Positions 8,864-62,416 of a stretch of 64,000 nt of DNA are shown piece after piece. How positions within the stretch are numbered: position 1 is the stretch's first letter; every line of letters begins with the position of its first letter. Origin of the DNA: Candidatus Enterousia sp. (GTDB lineage: Bacteria > Pseudomonadota > Alphaproteobacteria > Rs-D84); assembly GCA_045593685.1 (NCBI GenBank), contig JAZNXD010000027.1, forward strand, positions 29,569 through 93,568. Reading direction: 5' to 3'. The translations under genes were made by a program, and so were the position numbers. Below the pieces are notes generated by a model, which searched no databases, was not told the DNA's origin, and saw only the letters and a list, made by a program, of their open reading frames with translations.

Positions 8864-9964
8864 TTAGGCGACCTTTTTCATATCGGATTTTATTTGACGG
8901 ACGTATTTGCGCAGTTCGTCAATCGGAACCAATGTGCCATCACGTTTTTGGGCAGACCAATAATCCCACCCATTGTAACTGACACAGCGTTGAATTTTTG
9001 CCGCCATGACATGGATTGATGCGCGGCCGTATAATTGGTGGGTCAGGTTCCCGTCCTGGGTAATCATGACGCGTTCGCCACGTGGGCTGACCAATGTTTG
9101 GCCAACGTACAACAGACCAGATTCGATTAATTCGCGGAACGCAACACGGATTTCGTCGCGTTTTGGTTTTGTAACCTCGATATCGGTCAGGTCGATTGGT
9201 GTTATGTTTTCAATGCGTGCACGTGCGGCGTTAACATATTCGGGTTCGCGTTCAATTCCGATAAATTGACGGCCCAATTCGCGCGCTGCCGCCGCCGTGG
9301 TGCCCGATCCCATAAATGGATCCAGGATAACGTCGCCCGGTTTTGTCGATGCCAAAATAACACGGTGTAGTAAATCCAATGGCTTTTGGGTGTTGTGCAG
9401 ACTTTTGCCGTTGGCACCCTTGATACGTTCTTCGCCCAGGCATATGTTCAAATCCCAATCCGAACGCATTTGTTTGCCACCATTTAATTTTTTCATGGTT
9501 TCGTAATTAAATGTATATTTGCCGGTCTTGGTCGGTGTGGCCCAAATTAATGTTTCATGTGCGTTGGTAAAACGTGTGCCACGAAAGTTTGGCATTGGAT
9601 TGGTCTTGACCCAGACAATATCATTTAAAATCCAAAAACCCATGTCCTGTAAGATTGAACCAACGCGAAAGATGTTATGATAACTGCCGATTGTCCACAT
9701 GGCGCCATTTGGTTTTAAAACACGTTTGCATTCGGCCAGCCAACGACGTGTAAATTCATCATACTCTGCGTTGGATGAAAATGCGTCCCATTCGTCGCGA
9801 ACCGCGCGTGCCGCCGTTTGATCTTCGGGGCGATATAATGTCTTGGCCCCCAGTTGCAAATTGTATGGTGGGTCTGCAAAAACAGCATCAACCGAACCGT
9901 CGGGAATCCCGCGCATTAATTCCAGGCAATCCCCCAGTAAAATTTGGTTCAGGTATTTGTTCAT
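8864..9964 (-). CDS. ccrM: CcrM-like N6-adenine DNA methyltransferase (beta class)
   Basis: ILLGDCLELM...VDAVFADPPYNLQL is motif IV as in CcrM, with C-terminal FMGSGTTAAAA as motif I. I chose ATG 9964 (MNKYLNQ). Confidence 0.8.
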   Translation of the reverse strand: MNKYLNQILLGDCLELMRGIPDGSVDAVFADPPYNLQLGAKTLYRPEDQTAARAVRDEWDAFSSNAEYDEFTRRWLAECKRVLKPNGAMWTIGSYHNIFRVGSILQDMGFWILNDIVWVKTNPMPNFRGTRFTNAHETLIWATPTKTGKYTFNYETMKKLNGGKQMRSDWDLNICLGEERIKGANGKSLHNTQKPLDLLHRVILASTKPGDVILDPFMGSGTTAAAARELGRQFIGIEREPEYVNAARARIENITPIDLTDIEVTKPKRDEIRVAFRELIESGLLYVGQTLVSPRGERVMITQDGNLTHQLYGRASIHVMAAKIQRCVSYNGWDYWSAQKRDGTLVPIDELRKYVRQIKSDMKKVA

Positions 9965-10135
9965 CTCTCTGTTTTCCCCCGTTAATGTATATTTTATCAC
10001 ATTTCGGGCGATAAAAATTTTGATGGGGGGACATTATTTTTAAATAAAGCGCTTGATTTTTTATAAAAATGCATTTTTGCAAAAAAATAAAATTACTTGC
10101 GCAAAGATGATTTGATTGCTACCGTATTGGGTACT

Positions 10136-12684: not shown

Positions 12685-12793
12685 AAGAAATCAAGTAGAA
12701 ATAGTATGTTTTTTCTATTGATTATTAAAAATAATGTGGTATGAATAATCCCATAGGGAAGTGGAATTTAATCTTACTTAGAAAGGAGTGGCT

Positions 12794-15700
12794 ATGTCCA
12801 ACAATAAACACTTTGCGGATTTGTTAAAGGTCTGCAGTATTTTGCCAGCCTTGGCGATTATGCCGGCGATGGCAGGCGAGAATATTGTAACTGGTGATGC
12901 ATCTTTATCGTATCAGGATGTTAAAATATCACATACGACAGCGGGGACAGATGATGCACTGGGGGTGAATGCACAGGGCAAGGCAACAATTGATTTTACT
13001 GGTGATATAACAAATATCGCTGTTAATGCAGAAGGAAATCCGAAATATAGTGCGGCGGTCTTTAACTATAACGGCAAGGGGACGGTGTTAAACTTTAATA
13101 CGGATAAGATAATCTTGTCCGCAACGGGATCAAGTAATTCTGTACTGGGGGTTCGTGTAAATGGCGATGGAGATGTTGTTAATTTAAATGGTGAAACAGA
13201 AATTAATGTATCGTCAGACTCGACAGCAATGTTGCGTGCGATTGATGTAACGGATGGCGGGTATGTTTCGTTGAATGATGACACAGTATTGAATTTAACA
13301 GGTGGTAAAGACGCAGCGGAAACTATTGGTATTTTATCCAGTGGTTCAAAAAGTGTAGATTTGGCCCAGGGCAAAGATTTAGCAATAAATGCATCTGGTG
13401 TGCGCGAGGTTTATGGTTTATATGCCCAATATGGTGGCACAATCAATATGGCCCAGGATACCGAAGTAGATATTCATTCAACCGCAACAGGCGGTGATGC
13501 GTATGGTGTTGTCAGTGGTTTTTATGCAGGAGCTGCGGGAACTATTGACAGCAAGGGTGAAATAGATATAGATGTTAGTGGCGATAATGCGTATGGGCTG
13601 TGGAATTTTGGTGGGTCATCTACACATATCGCGGATTTAGATATTGTTGCCACAGCCCAGCAAATAGCCAGAGGTATCTGGGTAACAGATGACAAGGTGG
13701 TGGATGAGAGCAAGGCCGAAACAACAGATGTTGTTATTGGCTCAGAGGGTTCAAAGACTAAAATCATTGCAAAGGGTGCTGATACAACAAATACCGCCGG
13801 CGTTTTGGCAGAAAAGTTAGAAAAAGATGTTGGATTAACAATCCTGGGGGATGTTGATATTGAATCTGATGGTTACGGGGTGTTAGCAAAAGGTGGTGCC
13901 GTTGCCAATATTGGTACAGAATATGCAAAAGAAATCAAAATTCTATCGGAATCGGGCAGAGCATTACGTGCTGAATATGGGGCTGTTTTGAATGTTGGGA
14001 ATGTAGATACAGAATCTGTTGATATTTCTACAAAAGATAACTATGCCATTATGGCTGTGTATGCTGATACTGTAGTTGATATAAAAGGTAAAAATATTGA
14101 TGTTTCCACAAGTGGTGACAAATATATGGCGGCATATGCAGGGCTTGCTGGTACTTTGAATATTGGTACAGAAGATACAGAAAATATTAATTTGTCTGCG
14201 ACTGATTATTCTGCAGTACAAGTATTAGAAGATGAATCCAAAATGGATATTACTGGAAAAAACATCGTTATTTCCAATAATGCAAACACTTGGGGTGCGG
14301 TTCATGTCGCAAATAAAACAGAGGATTCTGATTATGCGGATGTTGCGACGTTGGATATAAAGGGTGAAAATATCTTTATCAAAAACAGCGCGGAAAAGGG
14401 GGTTGGTGTTGCTGCAATGAGCCAGGGTGTTGTAAATATTGAAGGTAATACAACAATTCAGGCGCAAAAGGCCATTGCGGCACGTGGTGGCGCCAAAGTT
14501 AATGTTAATACATCTGGTGAAAATACTGTAAAGATGTTGGGTGATATTGACTTTGACTATGACAAGGCAACATCTGGTACCAGCATTGATGCATATATTG
14601 ATGTGACATTGGCGGGTGATGAGTCTTTCTGGACCGGGAATACTGTCGTGACTTATGACGAAAAGCCAGAAGCAGAAAAGTTAGCGGTTTCAAATGCTAA
14701 ACTGACTATGAAAGATGGTGCGGTTTGGAACGCAACAAAAATCACAGACAATAAAGCAGATGTTAAGGGGCGTTATTATACAGCGTTAAATGACCTGATT
14801 ATCAATGGTGGTACGGTAAATATCGCGGATACAACACGTGGTATCACGATTGATCGTATTGTTGCAAATGACGCGACGTTTACGGGCGGTATGCTGAACG
14901 TAAATGAAAGCATTGATATCGAATCCGGTGAAACGCTATTCAATGGCAACGTGACCGGGGCAGAGGGTGCCACACTGACATTGGCCAGTGGTGCAACCAT
15001 GGATATCGGTACATCTACGATCAAGTTTGATACAATGACACTTAATGGTACGGTTATTGCATCGGTTACAAATGGTCGTCCGTATGGTCATCTGTTTGGT
15101 GATATTACGGCCGGCGAAGATGCATTGTTGAAACTGAATGTCGGTTCGGTTGGTACATATAAAATCTTTAATGATGCAGATGCCAACATGAAAATTGACG
15201 CAGGTTTGGCATATGTTGTGACGAACAATGGTGCGGATGGTATCGTTGTTGAAACCAAATCAATCGAATCCTTGGCCGAAGATGCGGGGATTTCAACCCA
15301 GGCGGCCGGTGCAATCGCAGGTTTGACAATGACCCAGGATCCGGCACTGCAAAAGGTATCGTTGGCCGCACAACAGGCATTGAACAGTGGCGATGCATCA
15401 ATGATTGCAATGGTTGAACGCGAAACCAAAAAACTGAACCCAACGGATAAGCCGGTTGCCCAGGCGGCGGCAACATCTGTTCAGAACCAGGTTCTGTCAT
15501 TGGCGGCGGGCCGTATGTCGGGTGGTGCCGTTATGGGACGCGCCGGTGGTGATGAAATTGCCCAAGAAAATGGTTTCTGGGTCCAGGGATTGTTTAACAA
15601 GTCCAAATTCGCAGACGAATTCCATGGATATACACGTGGGGTTGCGCTGGGGGCGGATACAACAATCGATAAAACATGGACCGTTGGTGCGGGGTTGGCG

Positions 15701-16321
15701 TTTAATAATTCTGATGTTCATGCAGATGGTGTTCATACAGATATTGACAGCAAGACCCTGTTCGTATATGGCCAGTACAAACCAAGTAATTGGTTCGTAA
15801 ATGGTACCGCGACATATACAATGTCCGAATATACAGACAGTAAAACCGTGTTTGATGTTGTGTGGAACGATTCGTATGATGTTAATTCATATGGCGCGCA
15901 GGTTATGGGCGGATATGACTTTGCCGCCGGTATCACAACCGAAGCGGGTCTGCGTTATCTGCACATTGCCCAGGATGCAACCGGCTTTGCCCGGGCGCTG
16001 GATACGGACTTCCTGACGGGGGTTGCGGGTGTGAAATATGCGTTCGCAATTGAAAATGATTGGGCGATTAAACTGCGTCCGGAATTGCGTGCGGCATTGA
16101 CATATGATTGGTTGAATGATTCTGATGCAGCAATCGTTGATATGCCAGGTGTTGCAACTTATAAGGTTGATGGAGAGAACCTGAACCGTCTGGGCGCAGA
16201 ATTGGGGGCAGGTGTGACATTGGATTACAAAGGTCTGAAGGTCACATTGATGTATGATTTGGATTTGCACAAGGAATATACATCACAGACCGGTATGATT
16301 AAGTTCCGCAGTCGGTTCTGA
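12794..16321 (+). CDS. Autotransporter outer-membrane protein (large beta-helix passenger + beta-barrel)
   Basis: About 1175 aa with signal-like LPALAIMPAMAGE. The passenger is G/T/V/N/D-rich and repetitive. The C-terminal roughly 280 aa is an alternating amphipathic barrel ending ...MIKFRSRF. The SD aggag sits 6 nt before ATG 12794. Confidence 0.85.
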   Translation: MSNNKHFADLLKVCSILPALAIMPAMAGENIVTGDASLSYQDVKISHTTAGTDDALGVNAQGKATIDFTGDITNIAVNAEGNPKYSAAVFNYNGKGTVLNFNTDKIILSATGSSNSVLGVRVNGDGDVVNLNGETEINVSSDSTAMLRAIDVTDGGYVSLNDDTVLNLTGGKDAAETIGILSSGSKSVDLAQGKDLAINASGVREVYGLYAQYGGTINMAQDTEVDIHSTATGGDAYGVVSGFYAGAAGTIDSKGEIDIDVSGDNAYGLWNFGGSSTHIADLDIVATAQQIARGIWVTDDKVVDESKAETTDVVIGSEGSKTKIIAKGADTTNTAGVLAEKLEKDVGLTILGDVDIESDGYGVLAKGGAVANIGTEYAKEIKILSESGRALRAEYGAVLNVGNVDTESVDISTKDNYAIMAVYADTVVDIKGKNIDVSTSGDKYMAAYAGLAGTLNIGTEDTENINLSATDYSAVQVLEDESKMDITGKNIVISNNANTWGAVHVANKTEDSDYADVATLDIKGENIFIKNSAEKGVGVAAMSQGVVNIEGNTTIQAQKAIAARGGAKVNVNTSGENTVKMLGDIDFDYDKATSGTSIDAYIDVTLAGDESFWTGNTVVTYDEKPEAEKLAVSNAKLTMKDGAVWNATKITDNKADVKGRYYTALNDLIINGGTVNIADTTRGITIDRIVANDATFTGGMLNVNESIDIESGETLFNGNVTGAEGATLTLASGATMDIGTSTIKFDTMTLNGTVIASVTNGRPYGHLFGDITAGEDALLKLNVGSVGTYKIFNDADANMKIDAGLAYVVTNNGADGIVVETKSIESLAEDAGISTQAAGAIAGLTMTQDPALQKVSLAAQQALNSGDASMIAMVERETKKLNPTDKPVAQAAATSVQNQVLSLAAGRMSGGAVMGRAGGDEIAQENGFWVQGLFNKSKFADEFHGYTRGVALGADTTIDKTWTVGAGLAFNNSDVHADGVHTDIDSKTLFVYGQYKPSNWFVNGTATYTMSEYTDSKTVFDVVWNDSYDVNSYGAQVMGGYDFAAGITTEAGLRYLHIAQDATGFARALDTDFLTGVAGVKYAFAIENDWAIKLRPELRAALTYDWLNDSDAAIVDMPGVATYKVDGENLNRLGAELGAGVTLDYKGLKVTLMYDLDLHKEYTSQTGMIKFRSRF

Positions 16322-22266: not shown

Positions 22267-23416
22267 AAATTTGGATCTGCGTGGCAAGTATGTTTTGTTG
22301 CGTGATGACTTTAATGTGCAAATTGTGGACGGAAAAATTACGGATGCGTTTCGTATTGAACAAAGTATGCCGACAATAAATGCTTTGCGCAATGCGGGCG
22401 CACGAATTGCGATTGTGGCACATCGTGGCCGGCCCAAGGGTGTGCGTAATATGGAATATACTTTGCGCCCGATTGCGGAATATATGGGTGTGGAATTAAT
22501 ACCGGATTGTTTGGACCGGGACTTTATGCCGAATATGCGCGATGGGGATATTGTACTGTTGGAAAATGTGCGTTTTTATGCGGGTGAAGAAAAAAATGAT
22601 CCGGCCTTTGCGGCGGATTTGGCGCGTGGTTTTGATGTGTTTGTAAACGATGCCTTTGCCGTATCGCATCGCGCACATGCCAGTACCGTTGGCGTGGCGG
22701 AAATATTGCCGTCGTATGCGGGTGATTTGTTGGCATCGGAAATTGAACATTTGTCGGCGGTTATGGAAAATCCGGCGCGTCCTTTGTTGTCAATCGTCGC
22801 CGGCAGCAAGGTTTCAACAAAAATTGGTGTGTTAAAGGCTTTGGCGCGGTTGTCAGATACGCTGATTATTGGTGGGGCGTTGGGTACAACTTTTAACTAT
22901 GCGCAGGGTGGGCGTGTTGGAAATTCGCTGTATGAAGCCGACCAGAAGGATACCGCATTGGAAATCTTGGATTTTGCCGAAAAGAATAATTGCCGGGTAT
23001 TGTTGCCTTTGGACAAGGGGGTGGCCAAGGAATTTGCTCGTGATGCCGTGCGTATGAACAAGGACTTTACCGAAATAGAAGATGATGATGTAATTATCGA
23101 TGCCGGAATTCAAACAACCGCGCGTGATGTTGCAGAAATTCGTAATGCCAAAACGGTTATTTGGAACGGCACGGTTGGTATGGCCGAGTGGCAACCAACA
23201 TGGTCGTATGGTTCGTTTGCGATTGCCAATGCGATTGCCGAACAAACACGCGCCGGTAAATTGGAAAGTATTATTGGGGGCGGGGATACCGTTGCCGCAT
23301 TAGAGGCGTGCGGTGTCAAAGATGATATAACCTATGTTTCAACCGGGGGTGGGGCCTTCCTTGAATTTATCGAAGGGCGGATATTGCCCGGTGTCGCAAT
23401 ACTGGAAGACAAGTAA
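22247..23416 (+). CDS. pgk: Phosphoglycerate kinase
   Basis: LRDDFNV...IVAHRGRPKG...NVRFYAGEEKND...GGGDT are canonical PGK blocks. It overlaps rnhB by 20 nt. Confidence 0.95.
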   Translation: MNLRTIKNLDLRGKYVLLRDDFNVQIVDGKITDAFRIEQSMPTINALRNAGARIAIVAHRGRPKGVRNMEYTLRPIAEYMGVELIPDCLDRDFMPNMRDGDIVLLENVRFYAGEEKNDPAFAADLARGFDVFVNDAFAVSHRAHASTVGVAEILPSYAGDLLASEIEHLSAVMENPARPLLSIVAGSKVSTKIGVLKALARLSDTLIIGGALGTTFNYAQGGRVGNSLYEADQKDTALEILDFAEKNNCRVLLPLDKGVAKEFARDAVRMNKDFTEIEDDDVIIDAGIQTTARDVAEIRNAKTVIWNGTVGMAEWQPTWSYGSFAIANAIAEQTRAGKLESIIGGGDTVAALEACGVKDDITYVSTGGGAFLEFIEGRILPGVAILEDK

Positions 23417-23442
23417 AAAAATCCCCCGGTTGGGGGATTTTT
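23415..23442 (+). terminator. Intrinsic terminator after pgk (ATCCCCC-GGTT-GGGGGAT family)
   Basis: AAAAAAATCCCCCGGTTGGGGGATTTTT lies immediately after the pgk stop. Confidence 0.7.
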
Positions 23443-23473
23443 ATGATATAATCCCTCTGAAAAGGATTTGGGA

Positions 23474-24436
23474 ATGCGTGGAAGTTTTATTTTTTTTTCG
23501 TTGGTATTCTGTCTTGGTCGGGCGTATGCGAATACTGAATTAACGGCGGCGATTGAAAATGTGCGTGAAATGTGTGGTGGCATTGGTGCGGAATTATCTG
23601 ATATGAAAAAGATGGCGGGTATAAATACCGCTGTTACTGCCGTTGGAACGGTCGCGGGTGGTGTTGGACTGGGGACGGGTATTGCCAAGGCAGGGGTTGA
23701 TAAAGAATTGGCACAAAAGGAATCGGAAATAGATAAACTTATGAAGAATGCGGGGTTTGTAAAACTTGAAACAGAAGATGAGTTATTAGAGGTTTTGGGT
23801 GGAATGTTTGGGCAGACCCAAACAGAGATCGGAAAACAAATTGCGGATTCTATTGCTGTGCGACGTGATGAAATTTCAAAACTGGAACAGAAATCCAAAA
23901 ATTTGGGTAACTGGCGTACGGGTATGATGGCGACCGCAACGGCGGCCAATATTGCCGGCGCGGTTATTGGGGGTAATAATCGGGTCAAGGGTGATTTGAA
24001 AACGCAAATTGATGGGTGTTTGACCTCTGTTAAAACATTGTCGAATGTTCGTATGCAGGCGCGTATGACGGGTGATGTATCCGAAGCACAGTTGGCGCGT
24101 GCAGAAAATATAGTTCGTGCATGCGAGGAATGGTCAATGGTTGATATCGGCAGTATAAATAAAAAGGCATCTGGGGCCGCAATTTCCAGTGGAATTGGTG
24201 CGGGGCTTGGGTTGGTTGGAACCGTCACCAGTGCCATGGCAAATACGGATGGCACGCGTAATGACAACAGTGATTTGGGCAAGTCAAAAGAAAAGAATCT
24301 GAATACCGCATCAAATATATTGGCGGGAGGCACAACGGTTGCCGGTGGTGTTGCGACTGTATTTAATGCAACGCAGATAGGTGCAGTTAAACGCGCGGTT
24401 GAAACAGCAGAAAAGTGCGAGGGGGCGTTACGATAA
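23474..24436 (+). CDS. Secreted protein with four Gly/Ala-rich glycine-zipper-like hydrophobic segments, hypothetical
   Basis: Signal peptide MRGSFIFFSLVFCLGRAYA. Segments include AGINTAVTAVGTVAGGVGLGTGIA, TGMMATATAANIAGAVIGG, ASGAAISSGIGAGLGLVGTV and ILAGGTTVAGGVATV, separated by charged helical linkers. Confidence 0.6.
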   Translation: MRGSFIFFSLVFCLGRAYANTELTAAIENVREMCGGIGAELSDMKKMAGINTAVTAVGTVAGGVGLGTGIAKAGVDKELAQKESEIDKLMKNAGFVKLETEDELLEVLGGMFGQTQTEIGKQIADSIAVRRDEISKLEQKSKNLGNWRTGMMATATAANIAGAVIGGNNRVKGDLKTQIDGCLTSVKTLSNVRMQARMTGDVSEAQLARAENIVRACEEWSMVDIGSINKKASGAAISSGIGAGLGLVGTVTSAMANTDGTRNDNSDLGKSKEKNLNTASNILAGGTTVAGGVATVFNATQIGAVKRAVETAEKCEGALR

Positions 24437-25611
24437 TGAAAAGATTATTTGGGCTGTTTTTATGTTGTTTTTGTTTTGTGGGGTATGGTAACGTTGCGCG
24501 TGCGGATGATATTGCAGATGTTATTGTGTTTCAGTATGGTGGAAAAGATTATTACTATGATAACATAGATGAATTAAGGGGGGTGTTTGAGCGTCTTATA
24601 ACAGCCGAGCCATGCTTGCAAAATCAAGACGGATTGACTGTAGATATGATGTTTGGGGCTTTGATTGATGTGTGCAGACAACGTCGGGGCACATTGGATG
24701 ATTTGCTAAGAAAGCAATATGGTGTTGCGCCCTCGGTTTCTCCAACATTGGGAAGGTGGGGGGTCGACAATATGTGGGATGATAGAAAAAGTAAAGAGAA
24801 TTCGTTGAGAGCTTGTATTGTTGATATATCTACCTTGGCGCAGGATTTGAAAAAGTTGACACGAGATAAGGTTGTGTTGAGCGTAGGAACGGATTTGGAT
24901 GCCTGTATTAATAGTATTAAGGTTGACCCAAATATATACACTTTTGGTTTAGGAGGGGGGTATTATGGTGATAAACCTGTGATGCGGCATATAGCAGATA
25001 CCCATTTTTTCTGTCCGCTAGATGTTGTGGTTGAGAGTGAGGCCGATTTGGCAAACGTTAGGAATTTAAATCAAGAATATACGGGTAAGAAATTTACATT
25101 TATGGATGAGTATGTTAAGCAAGCAGAGGGACAAGAGAAGTCAAGCGCAGATATGAAGGCCGATACGGTAATGGTGTTTAATGGAAGTATGTTGGTTATG
25201 TGTCAGGGTGGGCATGCCGTTCAGATGGGGCGTCCCGTGTATTCCGGGTACGATGGGTGTTTGGGGGGGGATAGTCAGGATTTACCGGCTTATGGTTCAT
25301 TGCCGGATGGGGTATATCTGATGAATGTTGGAAGGAATGTTCAAAATCTTGATGGAAATGATGATTTGGCTGGTTTTGGAAAATATAGAATTCCGTTGAA
25401 ACCATCAAATGAGTCCAAGACATATGGGCGCAATAATTTCTATTTGCATGGAACCTATGATCCTGCTAAACGTCGTTCATCGGGTTGTATTACATTGGGT
25501 GTGAATATTGATGAATTTATTGAAACAGAATGGTTCCAGAATCAGATAAAAAGTGGAAATAACATATTAGTTATCGTGAAAAACCAACTGAATTCAGCGG
25601 TAGATAAGTGA
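24436..25611 (+). CDS. Secreted protein with a C-terminal YkuD/Tlde1-like L,D-transpeptidase-fold motif
   Basis: The start overlaps the upstream stop (TAATG). Signal peptide MKRLFGLFLCCFCFVGYGNVARA. The C-terminus reads GSLPDGVYLMN...YRIPLKP...NNFYLHGTYDPAKRRSSGCITLG, matching the HGT...S-x-GC-I catalytic signature. Confidence 0.6.
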   Translation: MKRLFGLFLCCFCFVGYGNVARADDIADVIVFQYGGKDYYYDNIDELRGVFERLITAEPCLQNQDGLTVDMMFGALIDVCRQRRGTLDDLLRKQYGVAPSVSPTLGRWGVDNMWDDRKSKENSLRACIVDISTLAQDLKKLTRDKVVLSVGTDLDACINSIKVDPNIYTFGLGGGYYGDKPVMRHIADTHFFCPLDVVVESEADLANVRNLNQEYTGKKFTFMDEYVKQAEGQEKSSADMKADTVMVFNGSMLVMCQGGHAVQMGRPVYSGYDGCLGGDSQDLPAYGSLPDGVYLMNVGRNVQNLDGNDDLAGFGKYRIPLKPSNESKTYGRNNFYLHGTYDPAKRRSSGCITLGVNIDEFIETEWFQNQIKSGNNILVIVKNQLNSAVDK

Positions 25612-25632
25612 TTTATAGAATCTTTCTATGAT

Positions 25633-25660
25633 AAAAAATCCCCCGTATAGGGGATTTTTT
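25633..25660. terminator. Bidirectional terminator (ATCCCC-CGTATA-GGGGAT)
   Basis: Hairpin with A- and T-runs between the convergent 24436-25611 and 25659-26063 genes. Confidence 0.65.
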
Positions 25661-26063
25661 ATCGTTCATTTTCGCGGCGTTTTGCCAGAATGATGCCTGC
25701 GCCACCCAGTGCAATCGCGCCGGTAAGACCGCCCAGGGCCATTACGCTGTATGTTGCGTATGGCGATGCTAGGTAATATTCACGCGTTGTTTCATGATCT
25801 TTTTCGTATCCGTTGATAACAGGGGTTGAATAATAATATTTGTGTTCTTTTGGTGTGTTAAAACTGTATGCGGTCTCAAAGCGGTTCTTTAACGAATAAT
25901 TTTCTAATTTTTCGTCGCCTAGATACTTTACACCATGTGCTGCCAGTCCCATAATCGGTATGATGATCGCCGTTGCCAATGTGCCACCCAATGCACCCAA
26001 TGTACCATATTTCACAGCAGATGATGCACGTTTAAAATTCTTTTTTATATCTTTCTTGTTCAT
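25659..26063 (-). CDS. Small membrane protein with two glycine-zipper TM segments, hypothetical
   Basis: 134 aa. GTLGALGGTLATAIIIPIMGLAAHG and MALGGLTGAIALGGAGIILA flank a Tyr-rich loop. Confidence 0.5.
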   Translation of the reverse strand: MNKKDIKKNFKRASSAVKYGTLGALGGTLATAIIIPIMGLAAHGVKYLGDEKLENYSLKNRFETAYSFNTPKEHKYYYSTPVINGYEKDHETTREYYLASPYATYSVMALGGLTGAIALGGAGIILAKRRENER

Positions 26064-26190
26064 AATTCAATCTCCTTTGGTTAGTGTTCTTATAACGACC
26101 CAACACTATTTATATAGTACAAAAAAAATAAAAGTCAAGGAATAGACGTTAAAAAAATCCCCCGATTGGGGGATTTTTGTGGGAAGGGAT

Positions 26191-27270
26191 TTAATTAATT
26201 GCGACCGGCAGGATTGTTTGGCGCTTGGCCGCATCCAGTTGGTGATACTGGAACGGGACGGTTGCAAAATCGATTGATTTCATATCCAGACTGCGAATCG
26301 TGCGATTATACATGGTGTGATAGTATATTGTCATGTTCTTTAAATCCGTTGCCACCGTCCACTGGGTCGCAGATGGCATGTTGTTTGGTGCGCCACCGAC
26401 GGCGAACTGAACGCCCAACGGAACATCAAAATTGTTCAGGATATGAAACGCCTGGTTCACGGTGTCAAGTGCGGTGTCTTGTTCCAATGAATAGGTTTTC
26501 AGGAACGCCGCGCGGACAAAGCGCGATACGGGTGTAAAGTCACCCGGCAGCCCCAGGAAGCCCGAGCCCGAGCCAAATGAACGCAGCGTTATTGGGCCGA
26601 ACTTGGTTGGGCCCGCGCCGCCGGGATGCAGATTTACATAATTGTTCAGGTTGGTCATTTGCCACGGAAAGCCCGGCGCATTGGTCAGAACGCCAATTTC
26701 ATTTTCATAGAAGTTCGGGACACCGTTTACGATTTCCAGGACAACCTGGCGACCGTTGGGTTCGGTTATGCGCCAATGGACGGTACCGGCACTTTTGTCC
26801 ACGTTGATAATGCGGACGTTGTTAATGGCAGCCTTGACCTGGTCAATGGTGGAAAAGCGGGACAGTATCCATGATACAACCTGAAAATCGGCCAGGGAAA
26901 TGTCTTTGTTGTCTTCGTTGTATGGTTGGTATTTGCCATATTCCGGGAAATAGAACAGGGCGGCCGACAGGCCCGCTTCGTTGGTGCCGTCGATTATAAA
27001 TTCGGGTTCGGCGGCGGCCAGGCCCGCATATCCATAAAGTGATACGAATTCCAGGCCGTCCATCGTTCCGTCGGGTAATAAGGATTGGTGTGTGCGCCCG
27101 CGTGGTACGATGACGTACATGCTGTTGTTTTCGGTGCGTGACCAATCCATGGTACGTGCAACGACGGTTGCATTATCGCGCGATTTTAGTGTTATGCCTG
27201 TGCATGCGTCCGCCGACTGAATCAGCCCCAGGCATACGGTCAGTGTTGCAAATAATTTTATTTTGTGCAT
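26191..27270 (-). CDS. Choloylglycine hydrolase family (Ntn) linear amide C-N hydrolase, secreted
   Basis: The signal peptide ends ..QSADA, followed by CTGITLKSRDNATVVARTMDW. This N-terminal nucleophile Cys context is typical of PVA/BSH-type Ntn hydrolases. Confidence 0.75.
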   Translation of the reverse strand: MHKIKLFATLTVCLGLIQSADACTGITLKSRDNATVVARTMDWSRTENNSMYVIVPRGRTHQSLLPDGTMDGLEFVSLYGYAGLAAAEPEFIIDGTNEAGLSAALFYFPEYGKYQPYNEDNKDISLADFQVVSWILSRFSTIDQVKAAINNVRIINVDKSAGTVHWRITEPNGRQVVLEIVNGVPNFYENEIGVLTNAPGFPWQMTNLNNYVNLHPGGAGPTKFGPITLRSFGSGSGFLGLPGDFTPVSRFVRAAFLKTYSLEQDTALDTVNQAFHILNNFDVPLGVQFAVGGAPNNMPSATQWTVATDLKNMTIYYHTMYNRTIRSLDMKSIDFATVPFQYHQLDAAKRQTILPVAIN

Positions 27271-27390
27271 TTTGCTCTCTCTTGGGTTGAATTAATTATT
27301 TCTGTTTTAGGGGAAAATTGCACTAGGGTTGATTTCACATAAGATTTTATTTGCAATTTATAAATCAAGGGTATATAATACGCGTCGCAT

Positions 27391-45886: not shown

Positions 45887-46846
45887 TTAAACTACTTCGG
45901 TTACGGCGCGCAAAGCACCATCGCGTGATAATTGCACAACGCGGATTTTCTTTTTCATTTCCGATATTAAATCGGAACGGTTGTATGCCGGTTGTGTGTG
46001 CAGGATACGGTCCGCAAAAGCGGCATATGCGGCATCCGCGCTTTCTGCATGAATTGTTGTATAAAAGTGATCGTGCCCGGTCCCCAACATTTCCCACAGT
46101 ATGGATGCGTTGTCGGTTGATATTTCCCCGCCGATAATAACATCCGGCGTCATTCGCACAACCAGGTCCAATAAACGCGCATAGTTAAAATTGTTGGATT
46201 GTTCCGTACGCGACAGTACAAAATGCACGCGATTAGCCTGGGGGACACGAATTTCACGGGCGTCTTCGACCGTTATAACACGACTGTTTTTATCAATCAG
46301 TGTCAGCATGTGGTTTAAAAATGTTGTTTTTCCGGTTGCGGTTGCGCCCGATATTAAAATAGGGCTGCCATCATTAATTGCAGACATTAATCGATCGTAT
46401 GGATCGTCGGGACGAATATTTTCGCGTGGTTTTACACGCATCAATTTTTGTCCGCGCTTAAGGTGATAGTTTTCAAAACTGGTATCATGGGCGCCACCGC
46501 CACGAATATTTAGTGCAACGCCACCGGTGATATCGCGTTCGTCGTATTGAACATTTGGACCCGCGATTGCGGTAAAACGATGATTGCCGGGCAGGGTTGC
46601 ATACACAACCGGGATGCCATGAATTGGGTCAAATGGACGTTCATAGATGTTTGCAACCGTGTGTATCAGGTCAACCAAATATTGTTTGCTTAATATTTCC
46701 GCATTATAAGAAACCCATGGAACACGTGCCCCGTGCAGGCGCATCCAAACTTCGCCCGCGTGGTTGATGGCAATTTCTTCTACAAACGATGGTTTATAGA
46801 ATTCTTCCAGTGGTTTTAGCAAAGATTCCAGTACTACATTTGACAT
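45887..46846 (-). CDS. VirB11/TrbB-family secretion ATPase (orphan)
   Basis: VEEIAINHAGEVWM is the N-domain, Walker A is ILISGATATGKTT, followed by ITVEDAREI, the Asp box PDVIIGGEI and the His box GTGHDHFYTTIHAES. The start is ambiguous (46846 ATG or 46882 TTG). Confidence 0.75.
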   Translation of the reverse strand: MSNVVLESLLKPLEEFYKPSFVEEIAINHAGEVWMRLHGARVPWVSYNAEILSKQYLVDLIHTVANIYERPFDPIHGIPVVYATLPGNHRFTAIAGPNVQYDERDITGGVALNIRGGGAHDTSFENYHLKRGQKLMRVKPRENIRPDDPYDRLMSAINDGSPILISGATATGKTTFLNHMLTLIDKNSRVITVEDAREIRVPQANRVHFVLSRTEQSNNFNYARLLDLVVRMTPDVIIGGEISTDNASILWEMLGTGHDHFYTTIHAESADAAYAAFADRILHTQPAYNRSDLISEMKKKIRVVQLSRDGALRAVTEVV

Positions 46847-46924
46847 CAAGGCAATTTTACCATAAATCGTGACTTGAATCAAAAATGTTTATTTGTTAAA
46901 ATCAAAAAAAAGAGAGAAAAAGAT

Positions 46925-62390: not shown

Positions 62391-62416
62391 GAAATCCCCC
62401 GGTTGGGGGATTTTTT
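62391..62416. terminator. Terminator of typA (ATCCCCC-GGTT-GGGGGAT family), next to the carD terminator at 62361-62388
   Basis: GAAATCCCCCGGTTGGGGGATTTTTT overlaps the typA stop. The adjacent hairpin AACCGTCCA-TTT-TGGACGGTT plus a T-run serves carD. Confidence 0.65.

Follow-up and report, generated by a model that had tools for sequence, protein, structure and literature searches.

In a 64,000-nucleotide stretch of DNA from Candidatus Enterousia (the window), two translationally coupled genes for secreted proteins, ORF1 and ORF2 (open reading frames 1 and 2), are one instance of a large cassette family in which ORF1 is the constant half and the second gene varies, and mature ORF2 has been exchanged between near-identical strains; both points had been missed in the preliminary description of this locus. 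With confidence evenly divided for and against, we read the pair as a lineage-specific polymorphic secreted effector cassette of the order Rs-D84, with ORF1 as a carrier and ORF2 as its cargo, in this case a peptidoglycan-acting L,D-peptidase. Across the family, the partner of ORF1 is replaced by at least two protein classes, one of Tlde1 type and one with a shared N-terminal domain and variable C-terminal parts. To judge from its sequence, the L,D-transpeptidase-fold domain of ORF2 is closest to Tlde1/DUF2778 and retains the catalytic residues His, Cys and Arg. A Tlde1-type peptidoglycan L,D-peptidase is thereby placed outside type VI secretion (the T6SS), as a Sec-exported two-domain protein whose dedicated partner is always present, and a large unannotated ORF1 family (431 clusters at 50% identity) emerges as the constant half of diversifying secreted cassettes in an uncultured gut lineage. 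If ORF1 is indeed a delivery or secretion subunit, this would be a new and simple way of exporting proteins or delivering them between bacteria, and a handle on how sub-1-Mb bacteria interact with other cells. If the pair is an envelope module instead, it would be a lineage-specific cell-wall system under strong diversifying pressure.

The public contig closest to the window belongs to a Candidatus Enterousia metagenome-assembled genome (MAG) and shows 91-97% DNA identity in the flanking blocks. Enterousia belongs to the order Rs-D84 and has genomes of 0.75-1.0 Mb without a tricarboxylic acid cycle, respiration or the usual transporters (PMC12306168); it has been proposed that members of the order live as obligate symbionts or parasites and draw metabolites from other cells (PMC12306168). 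The features on which the argument depends are listed below. Loci in other genomes are numbered with the prefix L, and related proteins with the prefix P.

23474-24436, + strand: ORF1, 320 amino acids from the ATG, secreted, predicted all-helical, the constant gene and proposed carrier
23615-23695, + strand: ORF1 glycine-zipper segment 1 (residues 48-74), column conservation 0.90, weakly matching a bacterial dynamin-like protein in its paddle region
23906-23983, + strand: ORF1 glycine-zipper segment 2 (residues 145-170, ..GNWRTG..), column conservation 0.81
24167-24244, + strand: ORF1 glycine-zipper segment 3 (residues 232-257), column conservation 0.86
24302-24388, + strand: ORF1 glycine-zipper segment 4 (residues 277-305), column conservation 0.86
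24419-24438, + strand: coupling junction, with the Shine-Dalgarno sequence GAGGGGG (24419-24425) in the final ORF1 codons and then TAATG
24436-25611, + strand: ORF2, 391 amino acids, secreted, the proposed cargo protein
24530-25900, no strand: allele block divergent from loci L001 and L008 (DNA identity 35-64% over 24600-25699 and 73-78% over 25700-25899, with flanks mostly at 95-100%), spanning the mature part of ORF2 and, in ORF3, the C-terminal two thirds
25153-25590, + strand: Tlde1/YkuD-like catalytic domain of ORF2 (Pfam PF10908 and Foldseek)
25447-25491, + strand: catalytic motif H338-G-T-Y-D-P-A-K-R-R-S348-S-G350-C351-I352, with the invariant R332 six residues before the His
25659-26063, - strand: ORF3, 134 amino acids, convergent on ORF2

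A constant gene with changing partners

Signal peptides were judged by inspection of the sequence. The leaders of ORF1 (residues 1-19, MRGSFIFFSLVFCLGRAYA followed by NT) and ORF2 (residues 1-23, MKRLFGLFLCCFCFVGYGNVARA followed by DD) each combine a basic n-region with a hydrophobic core and an AxA site, a layout that is kept in relatives of both proteins. Because both have Sec-type leaders and conserved cysteines, ORF1 and ORF2 probably act outside the cytoplasm. At the junction (24434-24438), the final A of the ORF1 stop codon TAA (24434-24436) is the first base of the ORF2 ATG (24436-24438), and the Shine-Dalgarno sequence GAGGGGG is encoded by conserved C-terminal codons of ORF1 (..CEGAL). 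In total, 33 ORF1 cassettes were examined, comprising the window, loci reached via ORF2 relatives and 28 genome loci reached via ORF1. In every one of them the partner ATG lies -14 to +1 nucleotides from the ORF1 stop and the partner begins with an MKK-type signal peptide. Since a coupled start is found in 33 of 33 homologous cassettes, the TAATG overlap is not a matter of chance, and the preliminary description of the two genes as a translationally coupled secreted pair is borne out.

The association also holds when approached from the partner. ORF1 lies directly upstream in all 15 Tlde1-type genes that have 5' flank, and a metagenome scan with ORF2 motifs found three more complete Tlde1-type loci, each with ORF1 ahead. 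The named genomes that carry ORF1 are Enterousia or proteobacterial (mostly alphaproteobacterial) MAGs from animal and human guts, one of them labelled an uncultured-proteobacterium gut MAG and the others Enterousia or alphaproteobacterial. The ORF1 family has at least 1989 clusters at 90% identity, and of the 431 clusters at 50% identity that its profile matches, 188 do so at <1e-30. The ORF2 allele of the window was recovered in contigs of several independent gut metagenomes, the runs holding the locus being DNA metagenomes only. An impression that the ORF2 family is very rare (10 matches) was rejected: the word-indexed search behind it had missed six relatives (L010, L011, L017, L042-L044), which were recovered later via ORF1 or motifs. 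No published description of the ORF1-ORF2 cassette was found in the literature on Tlde1/DUF2778, Enterousia/Rs-D84 or glycine-zipper interbacterial toxins.

Full-length relatives of ORF2 account for about a third of the cassette partners (12 of 33). Altogether, the partners fall into eight BLAST groups, all of them Cys-rich; the seven non-Tlde1 groups are unrelated to one another by BLAST, range from 217 to 1269 amino acids, and have no significant Pfam match and no PDB sequence match. Hidden Markov models (HMMs) built by leaving out one family at a time nevertheless detect an N-terminal domain of about 100 amino acids common to these seven groups, with a W-containing helix, two Cys and a C-x2-F-x3-hh-x2-HN helix, while the C-terminal parts differ. 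The shared-domain HMM scores 12.5-53 bits, compared with 8-14 bits for the best shuffled sequences, and the support is strong in four groups, moderate in two and marginal in one. Extension of this domain to the Tlde1-type partners was rejected, as their scores (6 bits or less) are under those of the shuffled controls.

Several genomes hold more than one cassette. Two ORF1 cassettes occur within a few kb on one contig in L012 (468-4912, with a class-B partner first and a Tlde1-type partner second) and in L014 (6001-9405), and L013 and L034 come from the same MAG. Within the 64-kb window itself, no further ORF1 or ORF2 paralogues were found. Two side observations concern the surroundings of other cassettes. 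A highly conserved 97-amino-acid gene without a signal peptide (MNKNDLENLVEDYGYFDA...) lies 3' of the cargo in four cassettes with two partner families (L018 7746-8039, L023 5581-5874, L024 8350-8643 and L029 8038-8331). The flanks of one Tlde1-type cassette, in L006 (1808-6918), contain a resolvase fragment, a Fic-domain gene and a gene for a tyrosine recombinase, which hints at a mobile context there.

The Tlde1-like domain of ORF2 and its divergence between strains

ORF2 consists of a Cys-rich N-terminal domain (about residues 24-235) and a C-terminal L,D-peptidase domain (about residues 240-385). Residues 268-358 match Pfam Tlde1_dom (PF10908) with E=7e-7 and 30.1 bits, which is exactly the gathering cut-off of 30.1, while the match to Pfam YkuD (PF03734) reaches 18.5 bits and stays under the cut-off of 23.4. 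Six more distant ORF2 relatives all match Tlde1_dom at 20-29 bits (under the cut-off), and five of them also match YkuD, more weakly; the YkuD scores of ORF2 relatives are 16-19 bits, likewise under the cut-off. Relatives P0001-P0006 carry a precomputed PF10908 match, and in each of the 12 relatives checked the top-scoring Pfam family is Tlde1_dom rather than YkuD. An AlphaFold model of ORF2, when compared with the PDB by Foldseek, returned L,D-transpeptidases as all 50 of the matches listed, the best being YkuD 1Y7M (E=8.5e-5, probability 1.0); a single-sequence search of ORF2 against PDB sequences gave no meaningful match. The YkuD/Tlde1-like domain first proposed from motifs alone is thus retained, with qualifications.

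The ORF2 C-terminus contains GSLPDGVYL...YRIPL.P...FYLHGT...RRSSGCITLG. Among 13 ORF2-type sequences with 28-65% identity, G287, P290, G292, Y294, R318, L321, P323, R332, Y336, H338, G339, S348, G350, C351 and I352 are invariant, together with seven further cysteines; the catalytic His and Cys are therefore conserved in homologues, as the preliminary description had expected. The spacing from His to Cys is 13 residues. The second His of the (S/T)-H-G-C-h motif is absent, the ORF2 family having S-[S/G]-G-C-I, with Ser in the window and Gly/Ala in relatives.

Tlde1/Tae5 proteins (DUF2778, PF10908) are T6SS effectors with L,D-carboxypeptidase and D-amino-acid exchange activity, for example Salmonella Tlde1a (PMC9638812; bioRxiv 10.1101/2020.02.18.954545), in which the corresponding residues are R115, H121, S128, H129, G130 and C131 (PMC9638812). 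ORF2 resembles them in its Pfam assignment, its conserved catalytic His and Cys, its Arg six residues before the His, its Ser-x-Gly-Cys-hydrophobic motif and its periplasmic target compartment, as well as in a short His-Cys spacing (13 residues in ORF2 and 10 in Tlde1a, compared with at least 19 in YkuD enzymes). It differs from them in having Ser or Gly in place of the second His of (S/T)HGC, in that ORF1 always precedes it, and in the absence of a DUF2195/Tldi1-type immunity gene beside it. Further differences are a Sec leader in place of T6SS delivery and an extra N-terminal domain, both of which had been recognised before; the domain, put earlier at about 260 amino acids, is now placed at about 210 and is Cys-rich. 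A scan of 42 window ORFs, not an exhaustive one, detected no T6SS domain. With YkuD-type enzymes (PF03734; B. subtilis YkuD 1Y7M, LdtMt2, YcbB), ORF2 shares the modelled fold, the catalytic His and Cys and export to the cell-wall compartment, but it scores under the Pfam cut-off, its His and Cys lie too close together to fit HXX14-17(S/T)HGCh, neither a LysM nor a peptidoglycan-binding domain is detected in it, and it is hypervariable between strains. From profile matches and the predicted fold we conclude that ORF2 probably carries a YkuD-superfamily L,D-peptidase domain nearest Tlde1, as a borderline and atypical member of that group; for a Tlde1 protein it appears atypical in being Sec-exported and two-domain, with no T6SS link.

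Comparison of the window with its nearest counterparts reveals where the locus changes. Against L001, DNA identity is 95-100% over pgk, ORF1 and the ORF2 signal peptide and drops from about position 24530, to 35-64% over 24600-25699 and 73-78% over 25700-25899, before returning to 96-100% from 25900. At the protein level, ORF1 is 96.6% identical between the two strains, ORF2 53.7% and ORF3 86.6%. In a species of about 80% DNA identity (L010), the same pgk..CBAH locus encodes an ORF1 with 70% identity and a Tlde1-type partner with 27.6% identity, and has no ORF3, while in a related species (L020) an unrelated 497-amino-acid partner occupies this locus. As a side observation, the syntenic ORF1 homologue of L020 (6001-6995) is split over two frames, and its coiled-coil region has a divergent insert; either a pseudogene or faulty assembly of the MAG may account for this. 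Because the nearest relatives of an ORF1 usually share its partner family, the cassette family is best viewed as partly old paralogous cassettes and partly subject to allele exchange.

ORF1, ORF3 and the competing explanations

ORF1 has four invariant cysteines (C34, C182, C217 and C315). The four Gly/Ala-rich segments noted in the preliminary description are present: no other part of the protein is conserved as well as these Gly/Ala/Thr-rich stretches (mean column conservation 0.81-0.90, compared with 0.45 for the charged region 75-140), though they are only marginally hydrophobic, with a maximum 19-residue Kyte-Doolittle value of 1.46. Five long relatives of 521-708 amino acids (P0237, P0284, P0303, P0305 and P0316) retain the conserved ends and Gly-rich segments and carry a coiled-coil insert of 200-400 residues between segments 1 and 2, which gives a stalk of variable length. 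A reading of these proteins as domain fusions was rejected, given the same ends, the expanded coiled coil and the absence of a Pfam domain.

ORF1 matches no Pfam or NCBIfam family at threshold, and scans of its individual relatives gave sub-threshold matches alone (DUF7937, DUF3852, formate_TAT, EbpS, XaxA). In 11 of 43 ORF1 members, a weak local match to the XaxA model (NCBIfam NF033928) occurs in a consistent register, aligning segment 2 and the preceding helix over 60-80 residues with model positions 172-250 (best E=4e-5, 23.1 bits against a cut-off of 125); the ORF1 profile finds no XaxA match among PDB sequences. Other weak local similarities of ORF1 are to membrane hairpins. A weak profile match to the paddle of a bacterial dynamin-like protein among PDB sequences (E=1e-3) was judged compositional and rejected as evidence of homology. 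Taken together, the weak local matches suggest membrane-inserting helices in ORF1, without establishing family membership, and a pore-forming role for the protein may be considered.

If the carrier and cargo interpretation is correct, ORF2 would be an exported peptidoglycan L,D-carboxypeptidase or D-amino-acid exchange enzyme that edits peptidoglycan stems, by analogy with Tlde1, and it would act on cells other than the producer, either in antagonism or as part of the proposed partner-dependent lifestyle. ORF1 would use its four glycine-zipper helices, which are conserved and marginally hydrophobic, to enter a membrane and could thereby help the cargo to leave the producer or to cross the outer membrane of a target. 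A broader version of this idea is possible but in our view doubtful: the ORF1 family would be an unrecognised Sec-dependent two-component delivery system, in which a disulfide-stapled helical four-zipper protein enters a membrane and takes interchangeable cargo, the Tlde1-like peptidoglycan editor included, from the producer into or onto neighbouring cells, and Rs-D84 bacteria, with their reduced genomes and lacking most transporters and biosynthetic pathways, would use batteries of such cassettes to attack or tap the cells on which they depend.

In gene organisation, the nearest analogy is the Neisseria mafA-mafB-mafI loci (PMC4287609), where a conserved genus-restricted gene lies immediately upstream of the gene for a Sec-dependent secreted protein (PMC4287609). 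In both systems there are several loci per genome, the secreted protein has a conserved N-terminal domain and a variable C-terminal part, and neither the function of the constant upstream gene nor the outer-membrane route is defined. However, ORF1 is no lipoprotein and has an unrelated sequence, DUF1020 is absent, neither a consistent downstream immunity gene nor orphan C-terminal cassettes were seen, and the Tlde1-type cargo has an N-terminal domain of its own. Polymorphic toxins in general (Maf, contact-dependent inhibition (CDI) and Rhs systems) likewise combine a constant trafficking part with variable C-terminal or effector parts, occur at several loci in a genome and undergo allelic replacement; in the present family, the constant role falls to a separate protein that is translationally coupled, to which the shared N-terminal domain is added in seven partner groups. 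As to cognate immunity, ORF3 partly co-diverges with ORF2, yet it is absent from most Tlde1-type loci and common to unrelated cargo. With XaxAB/YaxAB and ClyA-family toxins, ORF1 has in common a size range of about 300-400 amino acids, an all-helical make-up, a coiled coil of variable length, conserved hydrophobic Gly-rich helices, an obligate partner encoded beside it and, in several relatives, the weak local XaxA-model matches. It is set apart from them by scores far below the XaxA cut-off, the lack of a structural match, a Sec leader and two probable disulfides, and a partner that is an enzyme or another Cys-rich protein and not a second pore subunit.

Several observations weigh against reading the cassette as carrier and cargo. 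The ORF2 model has low confidence (predicted local distance difference test, pLDDT, 58.7), and the ORF2 family profile reaches no PDB sequence, Tlde1a included, which also counts among its differences from that enzyme. The AlphaFold2 model of ORF1, built on a 43-sequence alignment, is unusable (pLDDT 46); a Foldseek search with it gave nothing significant (best E=0.17), with ClyA-family toxins appearing among the non-significant matches alone, beside designed helical bundles and chemoreceptors. The XaxA match of ORF1 relatives may reflect composition. An ORF1 and its closest relatives mostly come with the same cargo family, and much of the cargo diversity could be old paralogy instead of ongoing swapping. 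Mosaic recombination at 70-90% identity also affects the housekeeping neighbours: against L001 and L008, short blocks of this kind lie in 22400-22700 (pgk) and 27000-27300 (choloylglycine hydrolase), in sequence that is otherwise 95-100% identical, and to judge from the alignments they indicate frequent recombination between Enterousia strains that would be independent of the cassette. Finally, no conserved third gene, a Tldi1/DUF2195-type immunity gene included, is consistently present at Tlde1-type loci, which is unusual for a toxin that crosses the producer's own periplasm.

The main rival explanation, which we consider unlikely, is a housekeeping envelope module. ORF2 would then be a periplasmic L,D-transpeptidase or carboxypeptidase working on the peptidoglycan of its producer, either to remodel it or to link envelope proteins to it; ORF1 would be a structural protein of the envelope or outer membrane, produced in a fixed ratio to ORF2, and the other cassettes would be paralogous envelope modules. 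Such a module would need no immunity gene, both proteins have Sec-type leaders, and ORF1 clades largely track cargo families, as expected of old paralogues; the locus is surrounded by the housekeeping genes pgk, RNase HII, tpiA and grpE, mobile-element genes are absent, and the keeping of several copies in a reduced genome suggests a core function. It accounts poorly for a mature ORF2 that is 54% identical between strains whose flanks are 95-100% identical, or for the unrelated partner at the same locus in L020. The effector family Tlde1_dom also outscores YkuD in each of the 12 relatives checked, and the transpeptidase motif lacks its second His. Very unlikely, in our estimation, is the proposal that ORF1 is not a membrane-active delivery subunit but a periplasmic holder or inhibitor, chaperone- or immunity-like, that keeps the cargo inactive in the producer. 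Strict coupling with ORF1 first would permit one-to-one co-export, the absence of a separate immunity gene would be explained, and ORF1 clades do track cargo families; nonetheless, a single conserved protein (60-80% identity) accompanies partners that are non-homologous in their active parts, its most conserved features are the Gly-zipper hydrophobic helices and not a variable binding surface, and it kept 96.6% identity while the cargo allele went to 54%.

ORF3 is the subject of the remaining alternative, a three-gene toxin-immunity module in which it would be a membrane-anchored immunity protein or an obligate partner of an ORF2 toxin. As noted in the preliminary description, it is convergent on ORF2 and has two hydrophobic Gly-rich segments (Kyte-Doolittle 1.9 and 1.85), along with a basic N-terminus and a KRRENER tail; the predicted topology is of two transmembrane segments with cytoplasmic ends and a conserved Tyr-rich periplasmic loop. 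The family has 39 clusters, and ORF3 matches no Pfam or NCBIfam family at threshold. ORF3 is convergent just after the cargo in three flank contexts (the window, L001, L008 and L020; L004 and L009; L031), and the divergent allele block reaches its periplasmic loop and second transmembrane segment, with amino-acid changes clustering in loop residues 67-94. This co-divergence with ORF2 is the sole point favouring an immunity role. Co-occurrence of the three genes had been set beforehand as a test: ORF1 and ORF2 do occur together, but among the 18 Tlde1-type loci that have 3' flank, ORF3 is present in seven (the window, L001-L003 and L008, which are one syntenic locus, and L004 and L009) and absent from 11 (L005-L007, L010, L011, L012b, L017 and L041-L044). 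In L020 and L031, its homologues come after partners of an unrelated family, and distant members with 45-58% identity (L036-L040) lie amid housekeeping genes with no ORF1 within 5 kb. Because only some cassettes have it, those that do include two unrelated partner types, and it also occurs alone, ORF3 is a weak immunity candidate, and the hairpins described below place it in a transcription unit of its own between two terminators. The three-gene module is accordingly quite improbable, the earlier suggestion that ORF3 is an immunity or partner protein is not upheld, and ORF3 is probably at most an accessory membrane protein.

Transcription signals, neighbours and other features of the window

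The signals around the cassette and the copies of a recurrent palindrome are as follows.

23417-23442, no strand: palindromic terminator hairpin AAAAATCCCCCnnnnGGGGGATTTTT, which ends pgk and forms the upstream edge of the cassette
23444-23452, + strand: extended -10 promoter-like element TGATATAAT, 21 nucleotides upstream of the ORF1 start codon, read by eye
25628-25665, no strand: bidirectional terminator hairpin between the convergent ORF2 and ORF3
26155-26176, no strand: terminator hairpin of the choloylglycine-hydrolase gene, at the downstream edge of the locus
2719-2740, 23419-23440, 25636-25657, 26155-26176 and 62392-62413, no strand: palindrome copies in the window, by motif count

The element TGATATAAT is a putative promoter element that was missed by a consensus scan demanding a -35 element. 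ORF1 has an AAGGA Shine-Dalgarno sequence at 23462-23466, and a TTG at 23468, considered as an alternative start, lacks the spacing to it. Three copies of the palindromic hairpin AAATCCCCCnnnnGGGGGATTT, at 23419, 25636 and 26155, bracket the ORF1-ORF2 and ORF3 units, and thus ORF1-ORF2 would be one operon and ORF3 a separate transcription unit. The near-identical palindrome AAATCCCCC-nnnn-GGGGGATTT has 5 copies in the window compared with 0 expected by chance; every copy checked is at a gene end, and the palindrome looks like a genome-wide bidirectional terminator motif.

The neighbours of the locus are housekeeping genes, namely those for a porin-like outer-membrane protein, RNase HII, pgk, choloylglycine hydrolase, grpE, tpiA and a PpiD-like gene. 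A 333-amino-acid frame antisense to ORF1 (23332-24333, - strand) is most likely no gene but an artefact that arises from the Gly/Ala-rich coding strand. Elsewhere in the window, an N6/N4 DNA methyltransferase with a RAMA domain (8864-10000, - strand) lacks an evident restriction-enzyme partner in the set of ORFs scanned. A lone VirB11/T2SSE-type secretion ATPase (PF00437, E=1.5e-22; 45887-46882, - strand) adjoins a small lipoprotein-like gene, and no other secretion-system genes were recognised nearby. Lastly, positions 12788-16321 (+ strand) encode a 1177-amino-acid protein that ends in an autotransporter beta-domain (type V secretion) and whose passenger region is unannotated.

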